DNA of 64,000 bases. It comes from a virus. Lineage: Duplodnaviria > Heunggongvirae > Uroviricota > Caudoviricetes. The notes under the pieces are model-generated. The model made no database searches. It saw only the letters and a list, made by a program, of their open reading frames with translations, and was not told the DNA's origin. Shown here in pieces: positions 8,531-52,623 of this stretch. The translations under genes and the position numbers were made by a program. Every line of letters starts with the position of its first letter. Position 1 is the stretch's first letter. Where the stretch lies: the IMG/VR virus record IMGVR_UViG_3300032007_000002; one strand, written 5' to 3'.

Positions 8531-8929
8531 CTACTGCACGAGCGCCTGCAGGTCGTTCAACTGGATATACACATGCTTGTCTCGCTGGATCTCGTCGAGG
8601 GTCGCGTATGCGTCCTTGACGTAGAACTCCAGCATGCGGAAGCGCCGGTCGTAAATCATGCCGGTAATGGTGTCCACGCAGGCGAATGCCGGGTCGAACG
8701 GCTGTCCCTCGACCTTCTTCGAGATTTCCTTCCTCGCGCGGACGGCGTAGGCCATCTGGTGTGCCGCCTGGCGCATCTTGGTCAGGGTCTCCTTGTCCAG
8801 TCGGTCGGCGAACGCGTGCGACCACTTGAACGCGATGTCGCTCGTCTCGGCATAGATGGGGTTCACCTCGATGCCGGTCTTTTTGAGAAACTCGGCGACA
8901 GTCTTACGCATTTCAGTCTGGTTAGTCAT
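8531..8929 (-). CDS. hypothetical protein
   Basis: ORF track. Confidence 0.5.
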   Translation of the reverse strand: MTNQTEMRKTVAEFLKKTGIEVNPIYAETSDIAFKWSHAFADRLDKETLTKMRQAAHQMAYAVRARKEISKKVEGQPFDPAFACVDTITGMIYDRRFRMLEFYVKDAYATLDEIQRDKHVYIQLNDLQALVQ

Positions 8930-9611
8930 TCCCGGCCTCCTTTTCTTCTTCCTTGTAGCCCTCGATGCCGATCTGGGTGCCGATGTTCCTCACCGCGGCG
9001 TCGAACTGCTTCTTCATCTCCGCGTCGGAGAGGACGTACAGCCACTGCTTCTGGTCAGGGTCCTTGCCGGTAAGCAGCAGGGTGGCGTTATCGAAGTAGC
9101 AGGACTTGAACGTGGCGAAATTGTAGGACCGGGACAGTGAAGTCCTTTCGGCGGGCTTGACTTCGAAGCCGGGGCCGGACACGGAAATCGTCAGCCTGTT
9201 GTAGATGCCGTCACGGGCCTCGACATGGGCCGCCTTGAAGTAGGTGAACTTGTCGGCGCCTTCCTTGAAGCACAGGTTCTTGCCGACCAGCTCGGCTTCC
9301 GCCAGCGGCTGTATCAGCTTGACCGTCTCCGCATAGATCTGTTCCTTGGTCTTGGGTATGGCCGGCGCGGTCTCGGGCGCCTCGAACTGCGCGACGATGT
9401 CCTTCGCCATCTGTTCCGCCTCGTCGAACGACGGGTCGCTTTCGCTGATTCGGCAGACGCGGTTGAGGAGGGCCGTCGATGCCTCGCGGAGGCGGGCACG
9501 CTTGGCGGTTGGGTCGAGGTAGAGGGATTTGTCTGCCTTGGCGGTTTCCTCGTAGTGCCTGATCTGGAAGGCGAGTTCCGCGGATGCAACGAACTGTTCC
9601 TGTTTCTTCAT
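8922..9611 (-). CDS. hypothetical protein
   Basis: ORF track; motif copy at 9639-9651 upstream. Confidence 0.55.
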   Translation of the reverse strand: MKKQEQFVASAELAFQIRHYEETAKADKSLYLDPTAKRARLREASTALLNRVCRISESDPSFDEAEQMAKDIVAQFEAPETAPAIPKTKEQIYAETVKLIQPLAEAELVGKNLCFKEGADKFTYFKAAHVEARDGIYNRLTISVSGPGFEVKPAERTSLSRSYNFATFKSCYFDNATLLLTGKDPDQKQWLYVLSDAEMKKQFDAAVRNIGTQIGIEGYKEEEKEAGND

Positions 9612-12710: not shown

Positions 12711-13361
12711 TCAGCCCCGGGCAAATTTCCTCCGTTCCGCCCGGTTCCTCGGCGTTAGCGTATGCCCGTTTGCCGGGACGTTCTTGTAGAGGTACCTTAG
12801 CGCAATGTCGATGCCGTGCATGTTCCGTTCGGGCTTCCCTTCCGTCGCGAGCGCGGTGGAAATCAGTTCCTCTACCCGCTTGCCCTCGGCGGCCCATTTC
12901 GGTCTCGCCGTGGCGGAATCCATGTAGCAATACCGGATAGTGTCCGCCCACGTGAGGCTGGCACCCCACATCGGGGGCATCCTGCGCTGGCTCAGCGGCA
13001 GGCTGTGCTCGTCGATGCCCCTGCGTTCGAGGTCGGCCTTCCACCTGGCATAGCTCTTGATGGCTTCCTGGCGGGCGTAGTAGAGCTTCCTCGCCCGGTC
13101 CATAATCGCGTCGGCGTATTTCCTGGAGTCGCAGATTTCACCCTTGACGGAATACCCTACTTCCTCGACCCGATACGAGATGGGCGCGGCCTCGGGTTCG
13201 TGATTTTCCAGCCAGTCAATCTCGGCCTCGTAGTCATACGGGGAGCAGAAGTGGCCAACGAGCCACGTCTTGCCGGACGGATAGACCTTATAGAGGGCAT
13301 AGGCGATGCTTCCCGCCCAGAGACGGTTCGGGTTCAGCGGGACGTATTGAATATTAGGCAT
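12711..13361 (-). CDS. hypothetical protein; N-terminal domain paralogous to 26088..26576
   Basis: YALYKVYPSGKTWLVGHF vs YRLFKVYPSCKWLVGYY in 26088..26576. Confidence 0.5.
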   Translation of the reverse strand: MPNIQYVPLNPNRLWAGSIAYALYKVYPSGKTWLVGHFCSPYDYEAEIDWLENHEPEAAPISYRVEEVGYSVKGEICDSRKYADAIMDRARKLYYARQEAIKSYARWKADLERRGIDEHSLPLSQRRMPPMWGASLTWADTIRYCYMDSATARPKWAAEGKRVEELISTALATEGKPERNMHGIDIALRYLYKNVPANGHTLTPRNRAERRKFARG

Positions 13362-22543: not shown

Positions 22544-22565
22544 CCCACCCGATGCACCAAAAATA

Positions 22566-22597
22566 AAAGACCGGGATTAGTTCCCGGCCTTTTTCGT
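22566..22597. terminator. bidirectional rho-independent terminator between convergent genes
   Basis: aaagaccggg-attagtt-cccggccttttt hairpin with T-runs on both sides. Confidence 0.6.
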
Positions 22598-23053: not shown

Positions 23054-23247
23054 TCCCGAATCTCCTCCGGGATGTCATGATACAGCAGGGACAACTGCGG
23101 GTCCCACGCGGCGTTCATCAGCGCATCCATCCCTTCCGGCCACTTGGCCCTGATGTTGAGCAGGCGGTTCCGTGCCTTCCTGGCCTTTTCAATCCTGCGC
23201 AGCTTCTTCACGCGCTTGCGCTCGCGTTTCCTTGCAATGTTTGGCAT
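23050..23247 (-). CDS. small basic protein
   Basis: ORF track; Lys/Arg-rich. Confidence 0.35.
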   Translation of the reverse strand: MPNIARKRERKRVKKLRRIEKARKARNRLLNIRAKWPEGMDALMNAAWDPQLSLLYHDIPEEIRE

Positions 23248-24424
23248 GATATTGCTCCATGGCTGTCAATATTTCCTTGTCGAACTCGTCGCGCACTTCC
23301 TTGAATAGAGGCTCAGACGATTGTCTAGTTTCGGGCGTGTCCGGCACTTCGGACGGCGTTCCGTGGCTAATCAGCATGTTTTGCCCCCTGTACGGTTCCG
23401 GGCGTTCGGCCCACGCAAGAACAATGCTGTCGTCATAGTAGTATTCGCCGGTCCCGTCGTCCCATTGCGGGTTCTCCCTGCTCCCGTAGAATATCGCGGA
23501 GCAGGTCTCCCTGCTGGTCGCGGAATGTTCAATGGTGACAAGGACACGGGCGCCCATGTCCGGGAGACGTTCCGAAGTCGGGATCCATTCTATTCCGCGG
23601 GAACGCTGGTGCTCTTTGGACGGTACCGAGACGAAAATCTCGCCCTCGTAGCGTTGCCTGAACGCAAAATACCCGATACGCTGGCGTTCGGTGGACGCCC
23701 AAACATCGTCGAGGCGCGGGTCGTCCTTCCATGTATGCTCGGACACGTGGAACGGGATCGTGCAGTTCTCCCAGAACGTGAGGTTCGCCGGACGCTGCCT
23801 GCCGAAGCGGTGCGCACCGCCGAGGACAAGTTTCGCCCTTGCGCGTGCTTCGTAGCCGGGGAACACTACGTTGGTGAACCCGCGCATCGCCCTGTCCGTC
23901 AGGCAACCGAAGTCGTCGAGGAACAGGAAGTCCCAACCAATGCCGCGGGTATTCTTTTCCAGTTCCGCGCGGGCGCAGAATACGCTCCCGTTGCAGAACC
24001 GTATCTTCTGCGCCGTCCACTCGGTCACGCCGGGCTGCATCCAGTACGGGATGCGCAGGTACATCTCCCGGACGATGGACTTGAAGTAGCCTTCCGCGCC
24101 CTTGCGCTTGGGTGCCATGTAGAGCGCGGCGTATTTCGGCTGGAACATGCAGGCCCACAGCATGTAGCCGAGGACTAGGGTGGTATAGCCGGCCTGCCGG
24201 TACCAGTCCCCCTTAATCAGCTTGTTGTCGCGGATCGCGTCGAGTTCCTGCACCTGCCTGGGCCGGAGGGGGAACTTTACCGCGCCGAGCACGGAATGGA
24301 TGTAGAAGTAGTTTTCGAGGAAGTATCTCGGGTCGTGCTTGCACTTCTCGATTTCGAGCAGCTGGGCCGGTTCGAGCCGGATCTCTTCTCCCTCGCCACG
24401 GAGGTCAGGATTGCGCCTATACAT
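23189..24424 (-). CDS. terminase-large-subunit-like ATPase domain protein with non-canonical Walker A and C-terminal DUF551-like domain
   Basis: FPLRPRQVQELD...YRQAGYTT (RQxGKT pattern with K replaced by Y)...DFLFLDDFG (Walker B); C-terminus LPDMGARVLV...YYDDSIVLAWAERPEPY resembles DUF551. Confidence 0.45.
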   Translation of the reverse strand: MYRRNPDLRGEGEEIRLEPAQLLEIEKCKHDPRYFLENYFYIHSVLGAVKFPLRPRQVQELDAIRDNKLIKGDWYRQAGYTTLVLGYMLWACMFQPKYAALYMAPKRKGAEGYFKSIVREMYLRIPYWMQPGVTEWTAQKIRFCNGSVFCARAELEKNTRGIGWDFLFLDDFGCLTDRAMRGFTNVVFPGYEARARAKLVLGGAHRFGRQRPANLTFWENCTIPFHVSEHTWKDDPRLDDVWASTERQRIGYFAFRQRYEGEIFVSVPSKEHQRSRGIEWIPTSERLPDMGARVLVTIEHSATSRETCSAIFYGSRENPQWDDGTGEYYYDDSIVLAWAERPEPYRGQNMLISHGTPSEVPDTPETRQSSEPLFKEVRDEFDKEILTAMEQYHAKHCKETRAQAREEAAQD

Positions 24425-24523
24425 AGATGCCTCGGTTCTGTCTGGAACATGTTTACCTTATAAAATTAGGTTTCGGATTTCAAAAAATGATACTAATTTT
24501 TAAAAAATCGAGTGTAAAATTTT

Positions 24524-25414
24524 CTAAACAGACAGGTCGGCAATGAGGACGGCCTCGTCGGACCACCCTCCGCGCAGCTTCCCGTCGCTGTGCAGGACGA
24601 AGTTGCGGATGTATTTATGTTCCAGCTCGATTTCGAACTCCCTGCGGGCGTCCACCGCCCGGAACTCCACTTTCGCCCCGCCGATGAACCCGTAGAAGCA
24701 CCGGCACTTGGTGGACTCCTTCAGGCCGCCGAGCATCGACCCGAACATGTCCTTGATATACCTCGGCGCCCCGCCGAAATACTCCGCACGGAACAGGAAG
24801 TTGTCGATGCCGTGCTTCATGGCGATGTTCAGGTAGTTGTCGAGCCACACGCGGGTAATGTCGTTGGTAATCGTGCAGTTGAGGCGGAACTTGCGCTTCC
24901 CGTCGGCGAGCATCGAGAACAGCCTCCCCACGTCGATGATGTCCGGCACGTCGGTACCGAAAATCTCCCGGTTCTGTGCGTTGCTGAAACTGTGGCGGCT
25001 GACGTTCACGTATTTCAGCTTCTGCCGGTGGTCAAGGACTGGGAGGGACCGTTCCAGGAACGTGCCGTTCGTTGTCAGCGCGTAGTAGTCGATGCCGCTC
25101 TGCTCAAGCACGTCGAACAGCCCGTAGAGCCGGTCGTTGCCTGGCAACAGGGGTTCCCCGCCGGTGAGGGACACGCGGTCGATTGCGCCGGCCTTCACCA
25201 GCTCGTCAAGGCAGAGCCACAGCACGCCCGGATCAAGGACGTTGCGTTTCTTGGCGCCGCCTGTCTTGGCAAGGGAGCAGAAGCCGCACTTCGCGTTGCA
25301 CATGTCGGTCACCTCGACATACAGTGTGCGCTTCGCGGATCCGGCGGAGCAGCAGGAGCCGGTATAGACCTGGTACTCCTTGCCGAAAATGGTCATCGGT
25401 GTCACGTCTTTCAT
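24524..25414 (-). CDS. radical SAM enzyme, MoaA/viperin-like
   Basis: VTDMCNAKCGFCSLAKTGG (CxxxCxxC; viperin has CNYKCGFC), VSLTGGEPLL, ALTTNGTFL; 296 aa. Confidence 0.75.
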   Translation of the reverse strand: MKDVTPMTIFGKEYQVYTGSCCSAGSAKRTLYVEVTDMCNAKCGFCSLAKTGGAKKRNVLDPGVLWLCLDELVKAGAIDRVSLTGGEPLLPGNDRLYGLFDVLEQSGIDYYALTTNGTFLERSLPVLDHRQKLKYVNVSRHSFSNAQNREIFGTDVPDIIDVGRLFSMLADGKRKFRLNCTITNDITRVWLDNYLNIAMKHGIDNFLFRAEYFGGAPRYIKDMFGSMLGGLKESTKCRCFYGFIGGAKVEFRAVDARREFEIELEHKYIRNFVLHSDGKLRGGWSDEAVLIADLSV

Positions 25415-26088
25415 TTGGTAATCCTGCTGAACATGTTGATGCTGTATTTTTCGCCGTCGTTGAACTTAATCCCCATCTCGTTGAGGAGGGCGGTATCGCG
25501 CATGAGGTAGTGGAACCGGTCGGAACCGCTCATCTTAGACCACCTGCGGTCGTATTCCACCATGTAGGGGTAGCGCTTGTAGAAGGACTTCATGAAGTCC
25601 TCGACAATCGCGACGGCTTCCTTCTTGCGCTTCTTGTAAACGGCCTGCAGTTTCTTGTCAAACGGCCTGCCACCGCGCCTATGGAGCATTGCCAGTTTCG
25701 CCTCCGGCGTATCTGGATAGTCGATGTTGTAGTATTTCTTTCCCAGTGCGATGAAATCCAGGTACTTTTCTTTTACCAGCATATAGTTGGTATAGACCGA
25801 AGCGCCATTGATATGCGCGTTGAATAATGTCGGTTCGCCTGCAAAGAAATTCCTAGCTTCCTCGGTACTCGAATACGAGACATTATAGATCAGGTGGAAA
25901 TTGAACATGACATAGGGCCGGTCAATGAAGGCAAACGATACCCTGCCAATAAATGCACCGCGCTCGGTAATATCGAAATCGGACACCGAGGACGGATTGT
26001 ACGCGTCCTTGTAATAGTCGACGAGACGCTTGGGGAGGACATAGCCGCCCTGTTCCACGATCGACTTCACGAATTTCAGCATGTCCAT
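25411..26088 (-). CDS. hypothetical protein, translationally coupled to the radical SAM gene
   Basis: Start MDMLKF overlaps the upstream stop (ATCTAATGGACA); its stop overlaps the radical SAM start (ATGA). Confidence 0.5.
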   Translation of the reverse strand: MDMLKFVKSIVEQGGYVLPKRLVDYYKDAYNPSSVSDFDITERGAFIGRVSFAFIDRPYVMFNFHLIYNVSYSSTEEARNFFAGEPTLFNAHINGASVYTNYMLVKEKYLDFIALGKKYYNIDYPDTPEAKLAMLHRRGGRPFDKKLQAVYKKRKKEAVAIVEDFMKSFYKRYPYMVEYDRRWSKMSGSDRFHYLMRDTALLNEMGIKFNDGEKYSINMFSRITK

Positions 26089-26576
26089 TAGATGGGTCTC
26101 CCTTGGGGTTTCCTGATGGAGCGCGATTGCGCCCACCGGTTTGCCTCGGCAATCAGTTCCTTGGCGCTTGGCGGGGTCAATGACAGTTTCGGCCAGCCCT
26201 GGCGCACCAGGGGAATCGGATATGGCCTCTTTGCCCGTTCTTCGGCCAGCCGGGCTTCCTCCGCCTCCCGTTTCCAGCGGTTCCTGACTTCCTCCGGCAC
26301 CAGCTGGAGGGGGATTTCCTCGGCCTCGTATGAAATCTCGACAGGTTCACTTTCGAACCGGTCAAGATATAAAGTCTCCCGCTTGGCCTCGCCTAGCGTC
26401 TCGTAATACCCGACCAGCCACTTGCAGGACGGATAGACCTTGAAAAGCCGGTAAACGCAGTTCGCGTTCTGCAGCCACGGGGTGCTCTCGACGTTCTTCG
26501 GCCTGAACTCGAACTTAGCTGGAAACCCGGGGTCGGCTGCCAAGTATCTCTGCCCGAAACATTCTGCTGGTGTCAT
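26088..26576 (-). CDS. hypothetical protein; N-domain paralogous to 12711..13361
   Basis: ORF track; shared KVYPS.KWLVG segment. Confidence 0.5.
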   Translation of the reverse strand: MTPAECFGQRYLAADPGFPAKFEFRPKNVESTPWLQNANCVYRLFKVYPSCKWLVGYYETLGEAKRETLYLDRFESEPVEISYEAEEIPLQLVPEEVRNRWKREAEEARLAEERAKRPYPIPLVRQGWPKLSLTPPSAKELIAEANRWAQSRSIRKPQGRPI

Positions 26577-26812
26577 TTTTCACCTCTGGAAAACCGTGTT
26601 GCCGTCTCCCACGGGTTCTGCGAATTGATGTCCCGGAGCGCCTTCGCGAGACCCGCCTCGCCTGACTGGGGCTTGACAGGCACAATCTTCTTGGCGGCAT
26701 CTGAATTGAGCATCTCGGTAAACCGCGAACATCCTACAATCTGGTCAAGAACTGGTTGCTGCATGTTGCCTCCGTCAGTCGAAATCGTCTTCAAACGGCT
26801 CGTTATCGTCAT
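26573..26812 (-). CDS. hypothetical small protein
   Basis: ORF track; ATGA overlap with the downstream gene. Confidence 0.4.
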   Translation of the reverse strand: MTITSRLKTISTDGGNMQQPVLDQIVGCSRFTEMLNSDAAKKIVPVKPQSGEAGLAKALRDINSQNPWETATRFSRGEK

Positions 26813-37292: not shown

Positions 37293-38393
37293 CTACGAGC
37301 AACATATCTCAAAGGTAGATGCCCCTACCTTACATAAATTTATTGCGGCATTCCTATCCCTATCATGTTCTGCACCACACTTAGGACATATCCAATGTCT
37401 AATGGATACATCCTTCAATTCGTGGTTCTGATAACCACACTCGGAGCATAACTGGCTAGATGGGTACCACTTGTCTGCGTACATGACTGTCTTACCAGTC
37501 TTATGTGCTACATATTCAATGATATTCAAGAAAGTATTGAATCCGAAGTCGTACATGGATTTCTTATACTTCTTGGATAGATTAGCTAGGTCTAGCGTCT
37601 CAAACACCATCACATCGTAGTCACGGCACATCTGCCGTGCCAACTTCCAGTGCATATCGGAACGCTGGTTGGCTACCTTCTCGTGTAGCTTCTGCAATGT
37701 ACGCAGCGAACCTCGCTTTCCTTTAGACCTACGGTATTTCTCCGATAGGTTCCTTAATGAATTGAGGTTCTTCCGCAATAGCTTAGGCATACTGCAACCA
37801 TCACCGTTAGAGGAAACCAAGAAGTCGTGCAGACTGAAGTCGAAACCAACGATTTCACCCGATTTAGTCCACTCTTCGTATGCTACTTCTTGCTCAACAA
37901 CGATGTATATGTAGAAGCCGTTGCTCTTGCGCTTGACGGTGAGCGTTTTAATCTTGCCGTCGAAATCCCTGCTATTCCAGTAGGGAAAGTCTTTCTTGCC
38001 TATCCTAACTCTATTGCTGTCATGAAACTTATATCCACATTGCTTTGTCGTGAACGACCTATACTTTGCAGATTTCTGGAAATGTGGCGGATTGGTCTTC
38101 TTGCCAACCTTCAAGTTCGAGAAGAACAACCGATATGCTCGGTCTATCCTGTCCGTGATATCCTGAATAGCTTGAGACGGAACCTCATTCCAGTCTGGGT
38201 ATTGCTTCTTCAACTTGGTTAAGTGCTTCTGCAACTGATACTTATTCAACATCTTATGGTAGATGCCGTAGTACCTACGATGCAGAGCAATGCAGTGGTT
38301 GTATATCTGTCCAGCAACTACCAGAATACCGTCAAGATACCTCAAAGCATCCCTATTGTACAGCTTGTACTTGTATGTCTTCAATTCAACCAT
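37293..38393 (-). CDS. tnpB: IS605 OrfB / TnpB RNA-guided-endonuclease-family protein
   Basis: C-terminal QLCSECGYQ...HWICPKCGAEHDRDRNAAINL (RuvC-III plus zinc finger); 366 aa. Confidence 0.85.
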   Translation of the reverse strand: MVELKTYKYKLYNRDALRYLDGILVVAGQIYNHCIALHRRYYGIYHKMLNKYQLQKHLTKLKKQYPDWNEVPSQAIQDITDRIDRAYRLFFSNLKVGKKTNPPHFQKSAKYRSFTTKQCGYKFHDSNRVRIGKKDFPYWNSRDFDGKIKTLTVKRKSNGFYIYIVVEQEVAYEEWTKSGEIVGFDFSLHDFLVSSNGDGCSMPKLLRKNLNSLRNLSEKYRRSKGKRGSLRTLQKLHEKVANQRSDMHWKLARQMCRDYDVMVFETLDLANLSKKYKKSMYDFGFNTFLNIIEYVAHKTGKTVMYADKWYPSSQLCSECGYQNHELKDVSIRHWICPKCGAEHDRDRNAAINLCKVGASTFEICCS

Positions 38394-40035: not shown

Positions 40036-40617
40036 CGTGTTCGTCCTCCTTCGCGGCTTCCTGCATCTGTTCGTGGTATGCGCGATAGGAAGTGAGGAAA
40101 TTTTCCGCATAGATTGACGCGCGGACAAGGTCCGGGTGAAGACCGGGGATAAGGGAAATTTCGCGCAGGACGGTGGTCGCGTAGTCGATTTCCCCGATCT
40201 TGTTGTCGGTCCCCCAGCTCATCGCCGTGGCCACGGTGTTCTCGATGCGGGTGCGGACGATTTCCGGGTCCGGGCAGTTGCCGTTGAGGAAGGCGCACAT
40301 CGCACGGGCTTCTTCCTCGTCCTGGTAGAACCGGCGGTCGAAACAGTGGTTGTCCATCCAGTTCTTCGCGCACTTCAAAGTCGGCTCGTCGCGCTTGAGC
40401 GTGTAGGGCTTGAACTTGAACTTTCCGCCGGCACCGACATAGATGTAGTACACGGTGGCTTCCTTGATCTTGTTCTTCACCGCGTTCTCCAAGTCGAACG
40501 GGGTAATGGGGCCGCGTTCTCGGCATGCCTGGATGAAGGCTTCCGAGTTGATTTTCGGCAGCCTTGCCAGGCGTTCGCGAAGTTCACTGATCGATGCGTA
40601 TTCGCTCATCATCTTCT
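40028..40617 (-). CDS. hypothetical protein
   Basis: Start MMSEYAS after AGGAGAAG; from track ORF 40028..40771. Confidence 0.5.
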
Positions 40618-42630
40618 CCTTATGAAAACTCTGTAATAGATGCACTTCGGCATCCCGTTCTCGTCGAGCAGGTAGCTGTTCTGTACCCGCCAGTTCTTGT
40701 AGTAGGCCTTGTACGCCTTCTGCCGTTCCTCCGACGGGGGCGTAAAGAACTCGCACTCGTTGAACGCCCATGCGGTGTCCCCGCTCCGCCCAAGGACCTC
40801 GAACTGCTTCGGGTCGAAATGGTCGAAGAACGTAATCGGGACGCCCATCACCCCGTCGTAGTCCTTCGGGATGTCCGAGATCCTGTCGACGTTAATCGCG
40901 TCGAAATTCTCGAACTTGGGGTATTTCGCCGGATCGTAGGCAGCCTTCAAAAAGATGCCGCGCTCGTCTTCCTTCCGGGGAACTGACATGTTCGTGTACC
41001 ACCTGCAAAGGCCGGTGACCTTCTCGGTCTCGCCTTCCGGCGTCTCGAACTCGTCCGGGGAGGTGATGCCGAGCTGGATCCTGCCGGAACGCAGCTTGCG
41101 GAACACCTCGTTGTAGTTGACGCAGTTCTTGTTGCCGATGACATAGAAGTCCCTGTCGGCGCCGTCCACCCAGTCCACGAAGTCCCGGAAGCAGTTCCCG
41201 CACCAGGTGGCCAGGCCGTTCCTGCGGACGAGCATGGTATGGTTGCGGTCGAGTTCCAGGCAGTGCACGGTCCCGTCATACTGGACCTTCTCCGGCACGG
41301 GATAGTCCGTATTGCGCTTCTTGGTCTCGATTGCCCAGTTCGCCATCCAGTAGGGGTTTCCCTTGGACTTGCGCTGGATGAACTGCACGAGCACGCCGCG
41401 CACTTTCAGGATGAGCTCCTGCAGGCCCTCGCACAGCTTCGGTGCGGTACTGCCGATTGCCTGGCTCACCTTCCCGCCGATGTGGGAGAGATGGGAGTTG
41501 CCCTTCATGTAGCCGTCGAGGAAGCGGGCCATGTAGGCCGGTTCCATGTAGAGGACTTCCGTCGGGAACTTCTTCTCGATGCCCTTGCCGAACTTCGCGA
41601 GGTAGGTCCACAGCTGCTTGCTGTACACGGTGTAGTTGTGGTTCCTGGTCTTACTGGACCGTTCCACCTTGCACGGGAAGCCGATCTTGGCGTAAAGGTC
41701 GATGACGTACTTCTCGTTGTCCTCGTTCTGCTTGATGCTGATCGTGTAGCGGGGATTGCCGTTCACGTTGTTGCCGAAACGGACGCAGCCGTCGGCAAGC
41801 CAGAACCCGAGGAACTCCAGCCAGTCACCCATCGGAATTTTCTTTTCCGGGACGGTGATGTCCTTGTGGGTGTAGCGTTCGTTCTGCATGACGCTCGGGA
41901 GCGTGAAGAACTCCTCGTGGATGCCGCTCCAGTCGTATTCCAGACCGCGGATAGGCACGGAATGGTAGTGGGGGACCACCTCGTCGGCGCGGCAGAACAG
42001 GTCCTTGCGCTCGTTGCAGATCATGCGGTGGTTTCCGGTCACCATGAGGTCCATGCCGGACTTCTTGAAGTGGAACAGCTCGCCCTTGTACGGGGTGTCG
42101 TAGAAACGGACGATGCGGGCGTATTCGACCTTGCGGGTCGCCGGGTCCATGCTGAGGACGAGGTCGCCCGGCTTGACGTCGGTAAACAGCTTCCAGCCTC
42201 CGTCGGTGAGCACCTCGGTATCTGAAGAGAAACAGCTGAAAGGGGGGTTGGTCACGACCAGGTCGGAATGCTGCATGAACTTCGTGATTTCCGGGGAACG
42301 GAAGTCCCCGTCTCCATCCAGCACCCACCGGGCAACCTTAATATTGCCGTCCCGTCCGAGAGAAACCGTCTCCGCGTGGCCGCGATGGCCAGGGACATAG
42401 CTGGTACAGGTGAGTCTGCGGAGGCCCAGTCCCTGGAAGTTGTCGATGAAGAAGTCGCGGAACCCCGGGTGTTCAAGGTCGTTGCACGGACACAGGACGG
42501 TGCGGTTGGCGAAGAAGCCGGGGTCGCGTTCGAACAGCGCCTTCATCTCGTGGGAGACGTCGCTGTAACTGGTGTAGAACTCGTCGTTCTTGGCAGTCTT
42601 CGCCTCACGTAAATTGCGGTTCTTGGACAT
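40609..42630 (-). CDS. DNA methyltransferase (NPPF motif; N6-adenine/N4-cytosine type) interrupted by a LAGLIDADG-type intein
   Basis: Start MSKNRN; extein motifs VVTNPPF and GVPITFFDHF; the ~347-aa insertion has intein blocks A, B, C/E and a terminal Asn followed by Cys. Confidence 0.7.
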   Translation of the reverse strand: MSKNRNLREAKTAKNDEFYTSYSDVSHEMKALFERDPGFFANRTVLCPCNDLEHPGFRDFFIDNFQGLGLRRLTCTSYVPGHRGHAETVSLGRDGNIKVARWVLDGDGDFRSPEITKFMQHSDLVVTNPPFSCFSSDTEVLTDGGWKLFTDVKPGDLVLSMDPATRKVEYARIVRFYDTPYKGELFHFKKSGMDLMVTGNHRMICNERKDLFCRADEVVPHYHSVPIRGLEYDWSGIHEEFFTLPSVMQNERYTHKDITVPEKKIPMGDWLEFLGFWLADGCVRFGNNVNGNPRYTISIKQNEDNEKYVIDLYAKIGFPCKVERSSKTRNHNYTVYSKQLWTYLAKFGKGIEKKFPTEVLYMEPAYMARFLDGYMKGNSHLSHIGGKVSQAIGSTAPKLCEGLQELILKVRGVLVQFIQRKSKGNPYWMANWAIETKKRNTDYPVPEKVQYDGTVHCLELDRNHTMLVRRNGLATWCGNCFRDFVDWVDGADRDFYVIGNKNCVNYNEVFRKLRSGRIQLGITSPDEFETPEGETEKVTGLCRWYTNMSVPRKEDERGIFLKAAYDPAKYPKFENFDAINVDRISDIPKDYDGVMGVPITFFDHFDPKQFEVLGRSGDTAWAFNECEFFTPPSEERQKAYKAYYKNWRVQNSYLLDENGMPKCIYYRVFIRRR
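41194..42234 (-). other. intein (about 347 aa) with LAGLIDADG homing-endonuclease domain, inserted right after the NPPF motif
   Basis: CFSSDTEVLTDGG (block A), DLMVTGNHRMIC (block B, T..H), LEFLGFWLADGCV and ARFLDGYMKGNS (LAGLIDADG motifs), ending ...LATWCGN then C; boundaries approximate. Confidence 0.6.
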
Positions 42631-47212: not shown

Positions 47213-48495
47213 TTGTAGAGGTGCGGGATCATGACATCGTTGCGTATTGTGACGCCAGGTCTAATGATGTCCCCGTAGTCAATGAACGCCGGATCAATAT
47301 CGTCCCCGCCCAGGGTTTCCATGCCGAATTGCAACGAGACTGCACGTACATTATAGCCCTCAGCGCGGCTTCTCCCGCAGGAATGGCATTCATCGCAGTC
47401 GCAAATCACCACATGGAACAACCACTGGCGACGATCGGCAAAGACGCTCTTGATCGCCATGTCCCCGCTGGCCCCGTAGATTATCGCACGTTCCTCATCG
47501 GTGAACTTGGCATACACCGTGCAGGCAATCGAGGGCGCTTCGCAGCTGAGCGGGAGACCGCCCAATCCGTGCTTCTCCACGAACTCGGTAACCATGGCCT
47601 TGTCCCACTTGATGAGCGGGAACGTATAGGACGGCTTGCGGGCAACCTGGGTCTCGAACTCCGGCGCATGGTTTCCGTACAGGTGGCTGAGCGCAAACGC
47701 GCCGTCATAGAGTTTCCGCATGTCCTCGATAAACGTCTCGGACTGGTCCCCCTTGACAATCCCCATCTGCACCTCGTCCAGCAGGGACGTGATTTGCGGG
47801 TTGATGTAGGCAAGGCTGAACGTATTGACCGGCTGCTGGATGAAACCCTCGAACTTGCCGCCATAGTTACACGCCCCGGCAGGGAAATTGATGCCGCGAT
47901 ACATAGGCATCAGGATGCCCGGACCCTTGTAGGTCTTCGATATTGCGGCAAGCATCGTATATGCGAGTATCGGGGCAACTTTAAACTCGGCGTTGAGCCA
48001 GTTGTAAATCGGGAATACGACCTTACCCTCGTCCAGGTTCTTGAGAACGAGCGCCGTGCTGTCCATGCCTCCGGTAAACAGGACGCCTACCGCATTGGTC
48101 GGCTGTCCGTGTTCCCATTCGGGATTGAGCGTCCTGATTGCCGATGTCAGGCGGTCCGGGTAGCCATCCATCCTGGAAAACGCATTCTTGACCATGTCCT
48201 CGACCACATCCACTTGCGGGTAGCTTGTGCTCCAAAAATTGTAGGTATCTTTCTGCATGTGGCTAATCATGGTGAACCCGAGCGCATCCATGACTTCCTG
48301 CTTGCGCTCGCGGTAGAGAATGGGTACCCGGCGGTCAAACACCTTGGTGTCGATGTCTAGTCCCTGCATGCGGATGCCGAACCGCTCCCTGAACGGGAAC
48401 CTGGCAACCCATTCATTCGCAATCTTTTCTGCACGAACGGGAAACCCGACGGAATTATTCGGTTCCATCAGTTCCATGTCAGCTTTACTGCTCAT
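47209..48495 (-). CDS. PP-loop ATP pyrophosphatase superfamily protein, QueC-like, with C-terminal zinc-binding cysteine cluster
   Basis: VGVLFTGGMDSTALVL (SGG.DST PP-loop) and CDCDECHSC; start MSSKAD after GGAGGAAGCCG; co-transcribed downstream of the beta-class methyltransferase. Confidence 0.5.
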   Translation of the reverse strand: MSSKADMELMEPNNSVGFPVRAEKIANEWVARFPFRERFGIRMQGLDIDTKVFDRRVPILYRERKQEVMDALGFTMISHMQKDTYNFWSTSYPQVDVVEDMVKNAFSRMDGYPDRLTSAIRTLNPEWEHGQPTNAVGVLFTGGMDSTALVLKNLDEGKVVFPIYNWLNAEFKVAPILAYTMLAAISKTYKGPGILMPMYRGINFPAGACNYGGKFEGFIQQPVNTFSLAYINPQITSLLDEVQMGIVKGDQSETFIEDMRKLYDGAFALSHLYGNHAPEFETQVARKPSYTFPLIKWDKAMVTEFVEKHGLGGLPLSCEAPSIACTVYAKFTDEERAIIYGASGDMAIKSVFADRRQWLFHVVICDCDECHSCGRSRAEGYNVRAVSLQFGMETLGGDDIDPAFIDYGDIIRPGVTIRNDVMIPHLYK

Positions 48496-49291
48496 CGGCT
48501 TCCTCCCGGAAGATAGTCTTGAGACTGCCATGGAAGTCGCCCTTGTTCATCTCGGCGGCCAGCTTGACGATGCGCGTCCCGGCAATCTCGAAGTATTCCT
48601 TGTCGATTTCCATGCCGATGAACCTGCGGCCTTCCTTCAACGCAGCAAGGCCGGTGCTGCCGCATCCCATGCAGTTATCGAGGACGACATCGCCTGGTTC
48701 CGTGTAGGAACGGATAAGCCAGGAAAGAAGTTCCACGGGCTTTTCCGTGCGGTGTTCGGACTTGGACGGGTGCGGTTTCGGAATGTCGATGATTGACACC
48801 GGGTATTTCTGGGTGCTGCCCTTGCGGACGTCGTCCGTGGCCTTGAACTTGCCGTAGTTGTTGTTCACCATGTCCTTGGACATGTAGGACTTGCCGCGGC
48901 CGTGGAGGGGCTTCCCTTCGTGGAACTGCGGGTTGAACTTCGGCATGGACTTGTAGAACACGGCAAGCTGCTCGTGGGAACGGAGAGGCATGCGCTTGGC
49001 GTTCAGGAACCCGGTGACGAGCTTCTTGTTCCAGACCAGGTCGTATCGGAACAGCTTGCGCCTAGACTGAACCAGGTCAACGTAGAACAGGCCCTGGGCG
49101 AACAGGACGATGGCCCCGTCATCCTTGATGACACGCTCATACTGTTCCCATAGGGGTTCGAACGGGATGCGCTTGTCGTGCGGGTTGTGCGTGACGCCGT
49201 AAGGGAGGTCGCACAGGATCATATCGACCGACTTGGGGGCGAGCTTCTTCATCTCCTCCAGACAGTCTCCGAAAAACAGCGAATAGGACAT
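48485..49291 (-). CDS. beta-class N6-adenine/N4-cytosine DNA methyltransferase (CcrM/HinfI-like motif order IV then I)
   Basis: ILCDLPYG (DPPY-type motif IV) near the N-terminus and VVLDNCMGCGSTGLAA (motif I) near the C-terminus. Confidence 0.8.
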   Translation of the reverse strand: MSYSLFFGDCLEEMKKLAPKSVDMILCDLPYGVTHNPHDKRIPFEPLWEQYERVIKDDGAIVLFAQGLFYVDLVQSRRKLFRYDLVWNKKLVTGFLNAKRMPLRSHEQLAVFYKSMPKFNPQFHEGKPLHGRGKSYMSKDMVNNNYGKFKATDDVRKGSTQKYPVSIIDIPKPHPSKSEHRTEKPVELLSWLIRSYTEPGDVVLDNCMGCGSTGLAALKEGRRFIGMEIDKEYFEIAGTRIVKLAAEMNKGDFHGSLKTIFREEADEQ

Positions 49292-49355: not shown

Positions 49356-51110
49356 TTACCAGTTGTTCTTGGTCGAGGCGTCTTTCTTGGGCTGCTGGAC
49401 TGCATCGAGCACAGCGCCGGCGAGCTGCTTGACGTTTTCCTGGGAGAGCGCCTGCTGGCCCTGGTCCTGCTGGGCCTGCTGCATGCCCTTGCCAATCATC
49501 TTGCCGGCAAGAGCACCGCCGAGAAGGCTGTTGACCGCATTGGGGAGGCTGAACCCGAGCGAATCCGTAAGGCCGTCCGAGACCTGCTTGATGGTCTTGG
49601 TGACGCTTTCGGTGAGCTTTGCCGGACCGCCGTCGTAGATGGTGATGTTGCCAATCTTTTCCATCGGCTTTGCGGCTGCAGCGGTCATTGCCGGGAGCTG
49701 TTCGAAGAACTTTTCCGTGGCCTTGATGCGCATTTCGGTAATCGGGGCTTCGCCATACTTGTTCATGGCGTCGGCCTTCTTGTCGATTGCTTCCGCTTCC
49801 GCAAGACCCTTGGCCTTGATGGCGTCAGCTTCTGCGAGACCGGTTGCCTTGATTGCGGATGCTTCGTTGTTTGCCTTGTGGAGGTTTGCGTCCGCGATTG
49901 CGGTGATGCCCTTTGCCTTCTGTTCCTGGTCGTAGAGGTCACCTTCGGCGGACTTCTGGCGCTGGACGAGACCTGCGTCTGCGTCCTTGGAGCGGCGATA
50001 AAGGTCGGCTTCGGCGTCCGTCTTTGCCTTGTAAAGTTCGGCATCGGCGTCCTTCTGGGCCTTGTAATAGGCAGCGTCGGAATCGTGGATCTGTGCCTTG
50101 TAGTTGGCTTCTGCCTTCTTTTCGATTTCGGCCTGGAGTTCGCGTTCGCGGACAGACACCTTGCGTTCGCTGAGCTCGATATTCTTTTCTTCCGCCGCGA
50201 TGTTCGCTTCCGCGTCGGCGATGTTGATGAGCTTCTGCTGCTGTTTCAGCTTGATTTCGTAAGCGGTGTCTGCATCGGCCTTCTTGGTCTGTTCAATCTG
50301 GGCGAGTTCGTGCTTCTTGACTTCGAGGTCATTCTGGCGCTTGGCAATGGCAAGACCGTTTTCGACTTCGACATCGTTTGCACGCTTGTCGGCTTCGGCC
50401 TTTGCGATACGGATGTCCGCATCAGCAGCTGCCCTTGCGTTGGCTGCTGTCTTAAGAATGGCCGTGGCGCGTTCCGTACCGAGTTCCTTGATCATGCTGT
50501 GCTTGACACCTTCGCCGTCGATATATTCGTCGTCGAACTTCTGAATGTTGAAGGTATCGAGACGGATGCCGAGCTTTTGGAGGTCCTTGGTTGCACTTGC
50601 GTTCACGAGGCGGGTGATTTCATCGCGCTTGCTGACGAGGTCTTCAATCTTGATCTGGCCGATAACTTCACGCAACGAACCGTCCAAGATATTGTCAATC
50701 ATGCTCGCAATGCTGCTATTGACCTTCCTGGACGAAAATTCGGACTTGTCACTAATCTTGCTCGTATCGCCGGATTCCATGTTAAGGAAGTTCTGTGCGG
50801 CGATTGCAATATGTTCCGCAGTCGCATCAACCTTTGCCGTAGCAACCGCATCAACCTTGACAAACATGCAGTCGATGGTCGGGACCGGATCGGTCTTGTT
50901 GATGAGGATGGTCATGATCTTCAAGTCAACGATGTCAAGTCGTTCGATGAACGGGATGCGGAAGCCGGCGCGGCCCACGAGGACCTTCGGCTTTTCACGC
51001 CAGCCGGAAATGATAAATGCCTTGTCAGGCGGTGCCTTGACGTAGCCGACCATGAAAATGATTGCCAGGATTACTGCTCCGGCAATGATACAGATGAGTG
51101 GAATAGACAT
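49356..51110 (-). CDS. SPFH/band-7 flotillin-like protein (YqiK/FloT type) with long Ala/Glu/Lys-rich coiled-coil
   Basis: N-terminal transmembrane helix, SPFH core (AFIISGW..KVLVGRAGFRIPFIERLDIVDLKIMTILI), then ~250 aa of AEA/KA repeats; AAGAGGA SD. Confidence 0.75.
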   Translation of the reverse strand: MSIPLICIIAGAVILAIIFMVGYVKAPPDKAFIISGWREKPKVLVGRAGFRIPFIERLDIVDLKIMTILINKTDPVPTIDCMFVKVDAVATAKVDATAEHIAIAAQNFLNMESGDTSKISDKSEFSSRKVNSSIASMIDNILDGSLREVIGQIKIEDLVSKRDEITRLVNASATKDLQKLGIRLDTFNIQKFDDEYIDGEGVKHSMIKELGTERATAILKTAANARAAADADIRIAKAEADKRANDVEVENGLAIAKRQNDLEVKKHELAQIEQTKKADADTAYEIKLKQQQKLINIADAEANIAAEEKNIELSERKVSVRERELQAEIEKKAEANYKAQIHDSDAAYYKAQKDADAELYKAKTDAEADLYRRSKDADAGLVQRQKSAEGDLYDQEQKAKGITAIADANLHKANNEASAIKATGLAEADAIKAKGLAEAEAIDKKADAMNKYGEAPITEMRIKATEKFFEQLPAMTAAAAKPMEKIGNITIYDGGPAKLTESVTKTIKQVSDGLTDSLGFSLPNAVNSLLGGALAGKMIGKGMQQAQQDQGQQALSQENVKQLAGAVLDAVQQPKKDASTKNNW

Positions 51111-51422: not shown

Positions 51423-52118
51423 ATGCAGACAAACGCCCGGGAAGCCTATTTAAGCTCGTTAAAAGAAGAATATTCCGTCGCAATCGCCAGGACGCGGGAC
51501 AGCATAGTCCAGCTGTCCGGCAACGACGCGGCAAAGACCACCAAGCTGTTCCTCGAATCCAGACTGGGACGACTGGAACGCAGGCACAAGGAACTCGGTA
51601 TGGAGGTTTCCTCGACGGCAAACCAGGAAATCAAGACCGCCGAACCGAAAGTTACCCCATACGAGACCGATTTAGACGCAATCCGGGATGCCGTATATGG
51701 CATGACCGGTAAACTGGTCCCGTATTCAATGATGCCGAAATACTGGAAAGAGCTGACCACCCGGTGCGCAGCAATCAACATGCTATCAGGCGAATATGCC
51801 ACACCGGACACGCTCGGCAAGCTGAAAAAGATGCAGCAAGACCTCGACGACCTGGTGAACGACATCAAGAACGAGGCGTCGGTAAACCCGTATGGGTACA
51901 ATGCAGCATTTTGTGGGGTTTCGCTGGAACCGGGCCTATCATTCGAAAACAAACCGCAAACTAGCCGACTCAAGCACAACAAAAAACGTCGCAGGGGGAT
52001 GTCCTACGACGAGAGGAAGGCTGCGTTCGATGCAGGTGTCAAAGTGTCGGTCCAGGACAACTCCCCGTTATGGGACGTCCCGGGCGGCCTCAGTATCAGG
52101 CCGGAATCGAACTGGTAG
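51423..52118 (+). CDS. hypothetical protein
   Basis: ORF track. Confidence 0.5.
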   Translation: MQTNAREAYLSSLKEEYSVAIARTRDSIVQLSGNDAAKTTKLFLESRLGRLERRHKELGMEVSSTANQEIKTAEPKVTPYETDLDAIRDAVYGMTGKLVPYSMMPKYWKELTTRCAAINMLSGEYATPDTLGKLKKMQQDLDDLVNDIKNEASVNPYGYNAAFCGVSLEPGLSFENKPQTSRLKHNKKRRRGMSYDERKAAFDAGVKVSVQDNSPLWDVPGGLSIRPESNW

Positions 52119-52623
52119 TGTCTTCCACAAAGCGGCCATCCTTCTTGCGGAGGATGCGCTGGTTGGAACTGCCGCGGAACCTCAATGCGAGGTCCCGTTT
52201 TTGTTTGATGAACGGGCCGTCAACGAGCACGTCGGCCAGTTTCAGGATTTCCCCCGTAACGCCCCGCACATGCTTCCGGCCACCCGGATATAGGTCGCGC
52301 TCCATCACGTAGCCGGTATAGAGCCAGATGTTCTTCTCCGGGAGTTCCGCCCTGAACTTCCTGAGAAGTTCGAGCACGGCCGGCTGGTTCTCCTCCTCCA
52401 TCGGTTCACCGCCGAGGACTGTAATGCCCGCTATATAGGGCTTCCGGCATGCCTCGATAATCTCGTTAGCCTCAATTTCGGTGAACTCCTTGCCGTATGA
52501 GAAGTCCCATGTAGCCTCGTTGAAACAGCCCGGACAGTGGTTGCGGCACCCGGACACGAAGAGCGTCACGCGGCAGCCGTCGCCGTCCACGATGGACATG
52601 AAGTCAATCTTTCCGTAATTCAT
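52096..52623 (-). CDS. nrdG: anaerobic ribonucleoside-triphosphate reductase activating protein
   Basis: GCRVTLFVSGCRNHCPGCFN (radical SAM CxxxCxxC of NrdG type), ~175 aa, downstream of nrdD. Confidence 0.8.
   Translation of the reverse strand: MNYGKIDFMSIVDGDGCRVTLFVSGCRNHCPGCFNEATWDFSYGKEFTEIEANEIIEACRKPYIAGITVLGGEPMEEENQPAVLELLRKFRAELPEKNIWLYTGYVMERDLYPGGRKHVRGVTGEILKLADVLVDGPFIKQKRDLALRFRGSSNQRILRKKDGRFVEDTTSSIPA

Follow-up and report, generated by a model that had tools for sequence, protein, structure and literature searches.

Large phages often encode radical SAM enzymes, and the few phage-encoded types with a known role are, to our knowledge, NrdG, QueE and the thymidine-hypermodification isomerase. 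The closest described systems for the enzyme reported here are MoaA, viperin and the SPASM/twitch enzymes. Trees of viperins usually take MoaA as the outgroup; viperins themselves, as far as we know, carry no auxiliary cluster. In viperin, a C-terminal extension closes the barrel and carries conserved active-site and NTP-binding residues (bioRxiv 10.1101/2023.09.13.557418). In MoaA, three C-terminal cysteines go with an auxiliary [4Fe-4S] cluster with an iron site open to GTP. The twitch domain is a shortened version of the SPASM domain, a beta-hairpin plus helix with one auxiliary Fe-S cluster, and oxidative cross-linking maturases typically have an auxiliary cluster that is fully Cys-ligated (PMC9012708).

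The window, the whole stretch of 64,000 nucleotides that we analysed, comes from a large gut phage and is probably part of a genome of about 430 kb. The radical SAM gene, its motifs and the genes discussed with it are the following.

24524..25414, minus strand: radical SAM gene, 296 aa (translated ORF), type A of an unnamed clade
25349..25354, minus strand: cysteine pair C21-C22 in an N-terminal extension of about 38 residues before the core, invariant in type A
25277..25300, minus strand: CNAKCGFC, the CX3CX2C motif (C39, C43, C46) of the SAM-binding [4Fe-4S] site, read from the translation and invariant in all alignments
25151..25162, minus strand: GGEP, the SAM-binding GGE motif of radical SAM enzymes, invariant
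24992..25006, minus strand: NVSRH, a clade signature found in the alignment (N[IV]SRHH in the wider family)
24698..24706, minus strand: C237-R-C239 (CxC), twitch-like start of the C-terminal beta-hairpin, invariant (secondary structure from AF2)
24425..24523, minus strand: AT-rich spacer of 99 nt after the radical SAM stop, seen in the sequence
23189..24424, minus strand: 411-aa terminase-derived protein downstream of the radical SAM gene (phrog_5989, 1e-32)
25411..26088, minus strand: 225-aa ORFan with an ATGA overlap into the radical SAM gene, no family match
26088..26576, minus strand: 162-aa ORFan with a TAATG overlap into the 225-aa gene, no family match
26573..26764, minus strand: 63-aa ORF with an ATGA overlap into the 162-aa gene (GGAGG ribosome-binding site, ATG at 26764)
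12711..13361, minus strand: 216-aa ORF sharing a segment of about 67 residues with the 162-aa protein (BLASTP)

From its sequence, we classify the 296-aa protein as a genuine radical SAM enzyme that is predicted to cleave SAM. It has the CX3CX2C and GGE-type motifs, it scores 43.4 bits against Pfam PF04055 (E 5e-11; gathering cut-off 29.5 bits), and its AF2 model (pLDDT 82.5, pTM 0.82) shows the partial (beta-alpha)6 TIM-barrel fold. The original prediction had called it a radical SAM enzyme too, and the peptides that it quoted, VTDMCNAKCGFCSLAKTGG, GGEPLL and TNGTFL, are all found in the translation. Across 50 diverse relatives, residues N137, S139, R140 and H141 vary little or not at all. 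The gene is under strong purifying selection, with dN/dS values of 0.04-0.07 against three diverged copies. The prediction had also set this protein apart from QueE and from the NrdG encoded elsewhere in the window, and rightly so: QueE models give weak scores only, a bona fide NrdG is encoded separately at 52096-52623 (TIGR02491, 170 bits for a cut-off of 126 bits), and NrdG models are absent from the best 25 of the 46 families that the 296-aa protein matches (E up to 0.1). We rejected a role as activase for the phage NrdD, because the bona fide NrdG adjoins NrdD. We also rejected a thymidine-hypermodification, molybdenum cofactor (Moco) or queuosine context, as none of these families occurs among the ORFs of the 64-kb window.

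Within the superfamily, the protein appears to fall in the MoaA/viperin/SPASM-twitch region, in a clade that had not been described before. Homologues at 43-98% identity come from metagenomic or viral contigs only. Among 5.8 billion proteins there are about nine close clusters, followed by a gap down to MoaA at E values of about 1e-5. In an exhaustive profile search, 15 representatives have E<1e-30, and full-length relatives score about 100 bits; the family reaches below 30% identity, and the wider family amounts to hundreds of 50%-identity representatives. None of 185,579 reference genomes has a close relative (the best match is partial, at 34% identity), and a nucleotide search against deposited phages gives no match. 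Isolated phages hold no close named relative, and the matches there are weak and confined to the core (Erwinia and Dickeya jumbo phages, together with huge uncultured phages). None of 50 relatives is claimed by any NCBIfam model (best E 4e-22, for MoaA), and the automated IMG names, where there are any, are "MoaA" or "MoaA/NifB/PqqE/SkfB family". All the loci that carry the gene look like those of phages, and their contigs reach 388 kb. In the longer relatives the tails are Cys/Gly-rich and of low complexity, and a fusion screen of these proteins finds no second Pfam domain except in P0095, which has a second radical SAM domain.

In addition to the three cysteines of the SAM-binding site, all of 15 type-A sequences, the most distant at 31% identity, keep C21, C22, C237 and C239. 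The AF2 model folds the C-terminal part into a hairpin (237-254) and then a helix (256-265), resembling a twitch domain. At the position where type A has the CxC motif, the type-B relatives have CPVCR, and the second pair of cysteines comes from the N-terminal extension in type A or from a post-core tail in type B. At least two cysteines in an N- or C-terminal extension are present in 105 of the 136 relatives with hairpin cysteines, versus 3 of the 17 relatives that lack them (153 relatives; Fisher p = 2e-6, a value that ignores phylogenetic non-independence), and 31 relatives have the hairpin cysteines with no obvious second pair. This co-variation suggests a second, four-Cys metal site in the clade.

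In the mechanism that we propose, the [4Fe-4S] cluster at C39, C43 and C46 would reductively cleave SAM, and the resulting 5'-deoxyadenosyl radical would abstract a hydrogen from the substrate. The hairpin CxC (C237 and C239) would join with C21 and C22 to build a fully Cys-ligated second metal site, most likely a twitch-type auxiliary Fe-S cluster; a structural Zn or a rubredoxin-like Fe site fits the CPVC-type knuckles equally well. Near the active site, this second site could accept or relay electrons, a role that has been proposed in BtrN and observed in SuiB, and would not be an open substrate-binding iron like that of MoaA. With a closed acceptor or relay site, the net reaction would more likely be an oxidation, for instance a dehydrogenation or a cross-link. 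The radical SAM gene travels by itself between phage genomes that differ widely, so the enzyme's substrate should be one that every infected cell contains. With so many Arg, Lys and His residues invariant (R29, R140, H141, R177, R209, K236, R252 and R270), the likelier substrates are nucleic acids and anionic small molecules, for instance nucleotides or sugar nucleotides. Nucleotide chemistry is possible, with no specific pointer to it. The whole explanation, to which we assign a probability of about 0.55, is that of a stand-alone AdoMet radical enzyme in a viral and metagenomic clade, with a putative auxiliary site and with neighbours that are lineage-specific ORFans. A more ambitious version, in which a widespread stand-alone clade would use a four-Cys site with a swappable extension for new radical chemistry on a ubiquitous cellular molecule, for instance a nucleotide, sugar nucleotide or nucleic acid, as a tool for takeover or counter-defence, is tentative, and we would not count on it.

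The radical SAM gene and the two genes directly upstream are the tail of a co-directional array that runs from about 30235 down to the radical SAM stop. The coordinates of all three ORFs are those originally given, and the middle gene encodes 225 aa from its ATG, not 226 (an alternative GTG start lies at 26136). The genes had been described as a tightly coupled operon. The coupling is there in the ATGA and TAATG overlaps, but the three-gene unit is absent from divergent loci. The 225-aa protein has no Pfam, NCBIfam, PHROG, PADLOC or PDB match and only seven relatives among the 5.8 billion proteins, all at least 88% identical. The 162-aa protein has no family or PDB match and only three relatives in the same set, all at least 80% identical. 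A duplication of its N-terminal domain in the ORF at 12711-13361 had been predicted, and the paralogy is real but modest, with 36% identity over 67 residues (residues 35-100 of the 162-aa protein against 14-80 of the other; pairwise BLASTP E 9e-9).

Among about 50 loci, we find no conserved partner gene. Beyond subclade synteny, the type-A loci have no co-occurring gene family, and the 27 type-B loci, with GC contents of 22-58%, have none; the radical SAM enzyme therefore most likely works alone, as far as gene content can tell. In a rumen-phage subclade three unknown genes, F2-F8-F5, regularly accompany the radical SAM gene (F5 switches side in L008), so that some lineages may use partners. 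A six-frame HMM search of the window for F2, F8, F5, F9, F12, F23 and F7 finds none of them, and the sole subclade neighbour with a homologue in the window is F3, at 8922-9611, 15 kb from the radical SAM gene. On the downstream side, the 411-aa protein matches the T4 gp17 ATPase (profile E of about 1e-19), with the Walker-A Lys replaced by Tyr or Phe. Apart from the window lineage, L001/L021 are the only loci where this terminase-like gene adjoins the radical SAM gene, with opposite orientations, and we rejected a functional link because the adjacency is limited to these cases. The F5 protein of about 403 aa that stands beside the radical SAM gene elsewhere is unrelated to the 411-aa protein (hhalign probability 0.4%) and has no PDB match. 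The intervening 99-nt spacer includes a consensus match to a sigma-70-like site (TTTACA-17-TAGTAT, 24518-24490), where 2 sites are found and 4.6 are expected by chance; we find no terminator or structured RNA in the spacer (the fold z-score of -0.83 is not significant).

The gene array could instead encode a dedicated three-component system, in which the 162-aa and 225-aa proteins would be substrate, carrier or accessory subunits of the radical SAM enzyme. The overlapping start and stop codons agree with such a system, as do the retention of the arrangement in every species-level relative that we examined (L014-L017 and L022, 88-100% identity) and the purifying selection on the 225-aa gene (dN/dS 0.22-0.31). 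We find it very improbable, given that the two proteins have no homologues below 80-88% identity, whereas the radical SAM family extends below 30%, and that neither occurs in any of about 20 distinct divergent type-A loci. The coupling also continues upstream to the 63-aa ORF, which is called as a gene in L014-L017, so that three is an arbitrary number of genes, and the product of the 162-aa gene varies from 146 to 165 aa in close relatives. In L007, an IS-type transposase abuts the radical SAM start codon exactly; synteny breaks at that ATG, and the radical SAM gene is intact, at 98% identity. This case shows only in part that the partners can be dispensed with, since the contig ends inside the IS element and partners could lie beyond its end. 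We favour the reading in which the 225-aa and 162-aa genes would be fast-evolving, lineage-specific ORFans in a long co-directional array of the early type, and not dedicated partners. A different proposal makes the enzyme a SPASM/twitch-type maturase, comparable to SuiB, SkfB and HxsB/C, that would introduce a cross-link or another modification into a phage or host protein or into its own Cys/Gly-rich extension. This would make sense of the type-B C-terminal tails, where GCGS[YF]DW or CGG is repeated in a way that resembles tandem core peptides, and of P0068, with its expanded N-terminal CC..CCGGGGGCC segment; a closed auxiliary cluster is typical of cross-linking maturases (PMC9012708), and the small genes F2 and F8 are kept directly downstream in one subclade. 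The window protein, however, is tailless, its stop is followed by the 99-nt spacer, and there is no conserved precursor-like ORF beside it; neighbours are not conserved across loci. Pfam matches no SPASM or RRE domain in the 296-aa protein, no other leader-recognition domain is detected, and only two cysteines are found in the C-terminal region, where a seven-Cys motif is lacking. The single conserved C..C pair just past the type-B core looks like a ligand rather than a substrate. We regard a maturase as unlikely, if well worth keeping in mind.

The remaining alternatives take up the original label of the protein as viperin/MoaA-like, which holds in the sense that MoaA and viperin are its nearest characterised relatives by sequence and among the nearest by fold (the fold distances to MoaA, GDGT-MAS, SuiB, viperin and BlsE are about equal), and fails in that the protein is a member of neither family. 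A divergent MoaA would act as GTP 3',8-cyclase and carry out the first molybdenum cofactor step during infection. The best HMM matches are indeed to MoaA (TIGR02666, 67.5 bits, E 1e-18), the MoaA entries 1tv7 and 2fb2 top both the PDB sequence and the Foldseek lists, the Cys-bearing C-terminal hairpin fits a twitch-type auxiliary cluster, and there are relatives to which IMG gives the name. But the cut-off of TIGR02666 is 284 bits, and the other MoaA models behave alike (TIGR02668, 53 against 325 bits; NF001199, 45 against 231 bits). The MoaA PDB alignment is confined to residues 31-203, and the position of MoaA R17 is an invariant Tyr in the clade. Mob_synth_C (PF06463) is missing from the 296-aa protein and from P0001-P0010 in Pfam searches, and is present in the MoaA-like matches from P0011 onward, except P0022. 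A look for a MoaA-like second cluster at the C-terminus, proposed with the original prediction, gives instead a CC + CxC pattern, not three C-terminal cysteines with an open Fe for GTP. The approximately 105 ORFs of the window, 64 kb of the larger genome, include neither MoaC nor any other Moco gene, and cellular reference genomes lack the clade. We give a MoaA function scarcely any credence. The viperin-like alternative, a phage nucleotide dehydratase that would convert CTP, UTP or GTP into 3'-deoxy-3',4'-didehydro-NTP chain terminators acting on host or competitor polymerases, is highly unlikely as well. Partial matches to the viperin model NF038283 (39.1 bits) and to the PADLOC pVip models (41 bits), and PDB viperins at E values of about 1e-11 with the family profile, speak for it, together with the abundance of conserved basic residues in the active site and the lack of a conserved partner, as in viperin. 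The NF038283 score is far under its curated cut-off of 180 bits, however, and only positions 3-146 of 257 and 9-151 of 262 of the pVip models align, which is the generic radical SAM core. Because the PDB alignments stop at query residue 197 or so, the viperin C-terminal extension is unmatched, and the NTP-binding region that the prediction had asked about is absent with it. The family has four extra invariant cysteines, the likeness in CGFC..AKT is not family-conserved (the AKT after the third Cys is lineage-specific), and the Foldseek TM is about 0.5 for viperin against 0.62-0.64 for MoaA.

If the more ambitious version is true, these proteins would represent a new class of radical chemistry in phages, separate from that of QueE, NrdG, viperin and the thymidine-hypermodification isomerases. 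A nucleotide or nucleic acid substrate would mean new chemistry in phage-host conflict; if the Cys/Gly-rich tails are the substrates, the enzyme would be a self-contained maturase of an unusual kind. In annotation, such genes should not be called "MoaA" or "viperin", labels that some automated pipelines now give them, and translational coupling in phage gene arrays should not be taken as evidence of a functional operon.

Amongst known systems, the radical SAM proteins of jumbo phages, among them the Erwinia pEa_SNUABM phages and Dickeya phage vB_DsoM_AD1 (phrog_13987, phrog_1802), are, like ours, phage-encoded and MoaA-like, and are annotated only as hypothetical or radical SAM; they share 27-29% identity with the 296-aa protein over the radical SAM core only, and none covers 80% of the query. 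With viperin and pVip, the protein shares the superfamily neighbourhood, the partial (beta-alpha)6 core, the local CGFC, a probable independence of partner genes and a setting in the arms race between viruses and antiviral defence. It differs in being phage-encoded where viperin and pVip are host-encoded, in having a Cys-bearing hairpin in place of the C-terminal extension, and in its four extra conserved cysteines. MoaA (GTP 3',8-cyclase; PDB 1tv7/2fb3) is of similar length, has CX3CX2C, GGEP, TTNG and NVS in the same order, and has a Cys-bearing C-terminal beta-hairpin and helix. Unlike MoaA, the 296-aa protein has four putative auxiliary cysteines (an N-terminal CC plus CxC) instead of three C-terminal ones, no Mob_synth_C, a distribution limited to viral or metagenomic contigs and no Moco context in the window. 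Unlike BtrN, SkfB and SuiB, it has no SPASM seven-Cys motif, RRE or precursor gene, and two of its four cysteines come from the N-terminal extension or post-core tail, not from the hairpin region. Like BtrN, SkfB and SuiB, it has a C-terminal beta-hairpin and helix with conserved cysteines after the core, and its four cysteines are available for a putative closed auxiliary site, comparable to the fully ligated clusters of those three enzymes.

The radical SAM protein (rSAM; residue numbers are its own) is encoded in a run of minus-strand genes, three of which, those for rSAM and for the 225- and 162-aa proteins, the original prediction had joined into one operon. All three are present in the sequence at the positions proposed for them, and a fourth, 63-aa ORF adjoins them:

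24524-25414 (-), rSAM gene, 296 aa
25411-26088 (-), 225-aa ORF, upstream of rSAM
26088-26576 (-), 162-aa ORF, upstream of the 225-aa ORF
26573-26764 (-), 63-aa ORF, with GGAGG ahead of its start and an ATGA overlap with the 162-aa gene

So are the quoted peptides VTDMCNAKCGFCSLAKTGG, GGEPLL and TNGTFL, and both junctions (ATGA and TAATG) between the three genes. With the further ATGA overlap between the 63-aa ORF and the 162-aa gene, coupling extends past three genes, and a tightly packed co-directional array runs from about 30235 down to the rSAM stop. Directly past that stop lies a 99-nt AT-rich spacer containing a sigma-70-like site (24518-24490). A gene derived from a terminase is next, then two small genes and, at 22565-22593, a strong terminator acting in both directions. 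The terminase-derived protein (411 aa, 23189-24424, minus strand) matches the T4 gp17 ATPase domain (E about 1e-19) and phrog_5989 (1e-32), lacks a nuclease domain, and has a weak C-terminal DUF551 match. The lysine of its Walker-A motif is substituted (SRQLGKTT in gp17, YRQAGYTT here; Tyr or Phe in 4/4 homologues), and it is probably not a packaging terminase.

The identification as a radical SAM enzyme is confirmed by Pfam, where residues 33-161 match PF04055 above the gathering score, and the enzyme is, as proposed, distinct from the bona fide NrdG, which is encoded separately (52096-52623) beside NrdD. None of the curated families checked (MoaA, viperin, pVip) claims it. HMM placement, run as a check, gives 67.5 bits for the MoaA model TIGR02666 (cut-off 284) and 39.1 bits for the viperin model NF038283 (cut-off 180), and of the PADLOC pVip models only the N-terminal half aligns (model positions 3-146 of 257). 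Against PDB sequences, the family profile matches MoaA (E 1e-12) about as well as viperins (E 1e-11), over residues 31-203 only, which is the generic core. The Mob_synth_C domain (PF06463), found in nearly all MoaA-like database matches, is absent from rSAM and its nine close relatives. Conservation of the viperin-like 'CGFC..AKT', offered as a family sign, is lost even among close relatives. A confident AF2 model (pLDDT 82.5, pTM 0.82) gives Foldseek TM scores of 0.62-0.64 with MoaA, 0.55-0.60 with SuiB and about 0.5 with viperins. On its profile, domain and predicted-fold matches, the protein belongs to the part of the superfamily around MoaA, viperin and the SPASM-twitch enzymes, and is no nearer to members that use nucleotides than to those that modify peptides, lipids or sugars. 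The proposed viperin/MoaA likeness thus stands as to neighbourhood but not as to membership of either family, the scores being far under the cut-offs. We consider a true viperin function very improbable, and a true MoaA function, if anything, slightly more so.

Another rival, a dedicated system of the 162-aa, 225-aa and rSAM proteins, can point to the order 300-63-162-225-rSAM-TerL-like, which is kept in the species-level lineage (L014-L017, L022), as is expected at such low divergence. The 225- and 162-aa genes are absent from every divergent rSAM locus (L001/L021, L004, L006, L008-L010, L020, L024-L039), so that the operon does not survive as a conserved system, and we regard a dedicated one as highly unlikely. 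For the 225-aa protein there are seven relatives, none below 88% identity, and for the 162-aa protein three, none below 80%; neither protein has a match in Pfam, NCBIfam, PHROGs, PADLOC or PDB. Against diverged copies, dN/dS is 0.22-0.31 for the 225-aa gene, the 162-aa gene changes in length, and dN/dS for rSAM is 0.04-0.07 (three copies: L016, L017, L007). The suggested duplication of the 162-aa protein's N-domain in ORF 12711-13361 is real over a common 67-residue segment (36% identity, E 9e-9). At L007, where rSAM is 98% identical, synteny starts exactly at the rSAM ATG, with an IS-type transposase upstream; the contig ends within the IS and therefore shows only that rSAM tolerates loss of upstream coupling. 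TnpB/IS605-type transposase genes recur in these phages (window 37293-38393 (-); L007 1-1017; L001 9422-11170; L010 2-706), beside or near rSAM in three lineages, with the L007 element immediately adjoining the rSAM start codon.

Clustering of neighbour-gene families (F-numbers) around rSAM loci finds synteny within subclades only:

F3 (-), then rSAM-F2-F8-F5: rumen phages, with F5 upstream instead in L008
F23-F9-F12: beside rSAM in another locus group
TerL-like gene: beside rSAM in the window lineage and L001

In the rumen-phage subclade (L004 8887-11072; L008 796-3235; L024, L028, L033, L036, L037), F2 (about 148 aa), F8 (about 75 aa) and F5 (about 403 aa) follow rSAM; they have no family or PDB match, and no counterparts anywhere in the window. 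F5 was considered as counterpart of the TerL-like protein and rejected, the two being unrelated. Upstream of the rSAM region, the related phage L004 (1566-4294; also L005 611-3339) carries a tandem array of about 11 ORFs of much the same size, 72-90 aa. Twenty-seven type-B loci (type defined below; GC 22-58%) have no common neighbour. The gene behaves like a stand-alone accessory gene.

About 105 window ORFs were scanned for families, giving NrdD, NrdG, three DNA methyltransferases (of which one contains an intein) and another methyltransferase domain, SPFH/flotillin, an AAA ATPase, a glycosyltransferase, TnpB, NIF3, ClpP, HU, a gp30.3-like protein and two DUFs; enzymes of the Moco, queuosine or thymidine-hypermodification pathways are absent from these ORFs. 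The whole genome probably measures some 430 kb, so the 64-kb window is a small part of it and partners elsewhere are conceivable. A protein identical to the 225-aa one (P0206) is on a 432,572-bp contig, and rSAM relatives are on viral contigs of 158-388 kb; the window is probably part of a megaphage-sized genome present in gut metagenomes. The 673-aa EcoRI-like adenine methyltransferase (40609-42630, minus strand) apparently has an inserted intein, and its residues ~130-350 contain weak matches to Hint and LAGLIDADG; two further DNA methyltransferases are at 48485-49291 and 61008-61859, and a phage-encoded 584-aa SPFH/Band 7 and flotillin-domain protein is at 49356-51110 (-). Between NrdG and NrdD (54662-57220), a 636-aa ORF without family match (52627-54537, minus strand) may be a mobile insertion, given its lower GC (0.48 versus about 0.56).

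Close relatives of rSAM are few. A search of 5.8 billion clustered proteins found only nine close clusters (43-98% identity), then, past a gulf, one 27% relative and archaeal MoaA at E ~1e-5. A profile run exhaustively against 1.84 billion representatives found 15 at E<1e-30, along with a wide range of full-length relatives scoring about 100 bits. Among 50 sampled relatives none strongly matches a curated NCBIfam model (best E = 4e-22, MoaA), and source annotations are missing or generic ('MoaA', 'MoaA/NifB/PqqE/SkfB family'). Those with genomic context are all on phage-like contigs of at most 388 kb from gut, rumen and other metagenomes. No close relative was found in isolated phages or in 185,579 bacterial and archaeal species (one genome each), where the nearest match covers only part of the core, at 34% identity. 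This is an uncharacterised stand-alone clade, known solely from viral and metagenomic contigs, with a putative and unusual split four-Cys site.

Beyond C39/C43/C46, four cysteines are invariant in relatives down to 31% identity:

C21-C22: N-terminal extension of about 38 residues, motif FGKEYxVYxGSCCS
C237-x-C239: start of a predicted beta-hairpin (237-254), then helix 256-265, motif KESTKCRC

In the AF2 model, hairpin and helix have the layout of a twitch domain, a truncated SPASM domain binding one auxiliary cluster (PMC9012708). We typed the Cys patterns of 153 relatives:

Type A, 31, including the window protein: N-terminal CC and hairpin CxC, no tail
Type B, 71: hairpin CPVCR, N-terminal Cys absent, and a tail at the C-terminus that holds two or more Cys in GCG/CG contexts
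Hairpin Cys only, 31
Neither feature, 14: QDYYVYE in the hairpin position
Remaining, 6: N-terminal Cys and other patterns

Type B has a conserved C..C pair immediately past the core, and some tails repeat GCGS[YF]DW. Extension cysteines occur in 105/136 sequences with hairpin cysteines and 3/17 without (Fisher p 2e-6, uncorrected for phylogeny), and from this co-occurrence we infer that the hairpin pair and the terminal-extension pair form one metal site; a Zn or rubredoxin-type site is possible instead of a cluster. Type-B tails (P0077, P0081, P0091, P0071, P0074) carry repeated Cys/Gly-rich motifs (GCGSYDW, GCGSFDW, YECGG, SCGGGS), and the number of Cys reaches 10 in P0091; the motif IGCGYMG bears a faint likeness to the NrdD glycyl-radical motif RVCGY. 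The tails may be metal ligands or in-cis substrates.

What we observe is an rSAM core that is intact and strongly selected, four additional cysteines that never vary, and no conserved partner. Our main reading, with a probability of roughly 0.55, is a stand-alone enzyme with a predicted closed auxiliary site, carrying out a net oxidation or cross-link on a ubiquitous substrate. The C39/C43/C46 cluster would cleave SAM, and the resulting radical would take a hydrogen atom from something found in any infected cell. A closed site built from C21/C22/C237/C239 would act as electron acceptor or relay, favouring oxidation or cross-linking over MoaA-type substrate coordination. The invariant basic residues (R29, R140, H141, R177, R209, K236, R252, R270) speak for an anionic ligand; R177 lines up with K163 of MoaA, a residue that contacts the GTP phosphates. 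Under this main reading, a nucleotide-like substrate is a tentative suggestion, and a protein or peptide, in-cis tails included, a rather doubtful one. MoaA has three cysteines and an open Fe where GTP binds, whereas the site predicted here would have four ligands and be closed, like the auxiliary cluster of BtrN (PMC9012708).
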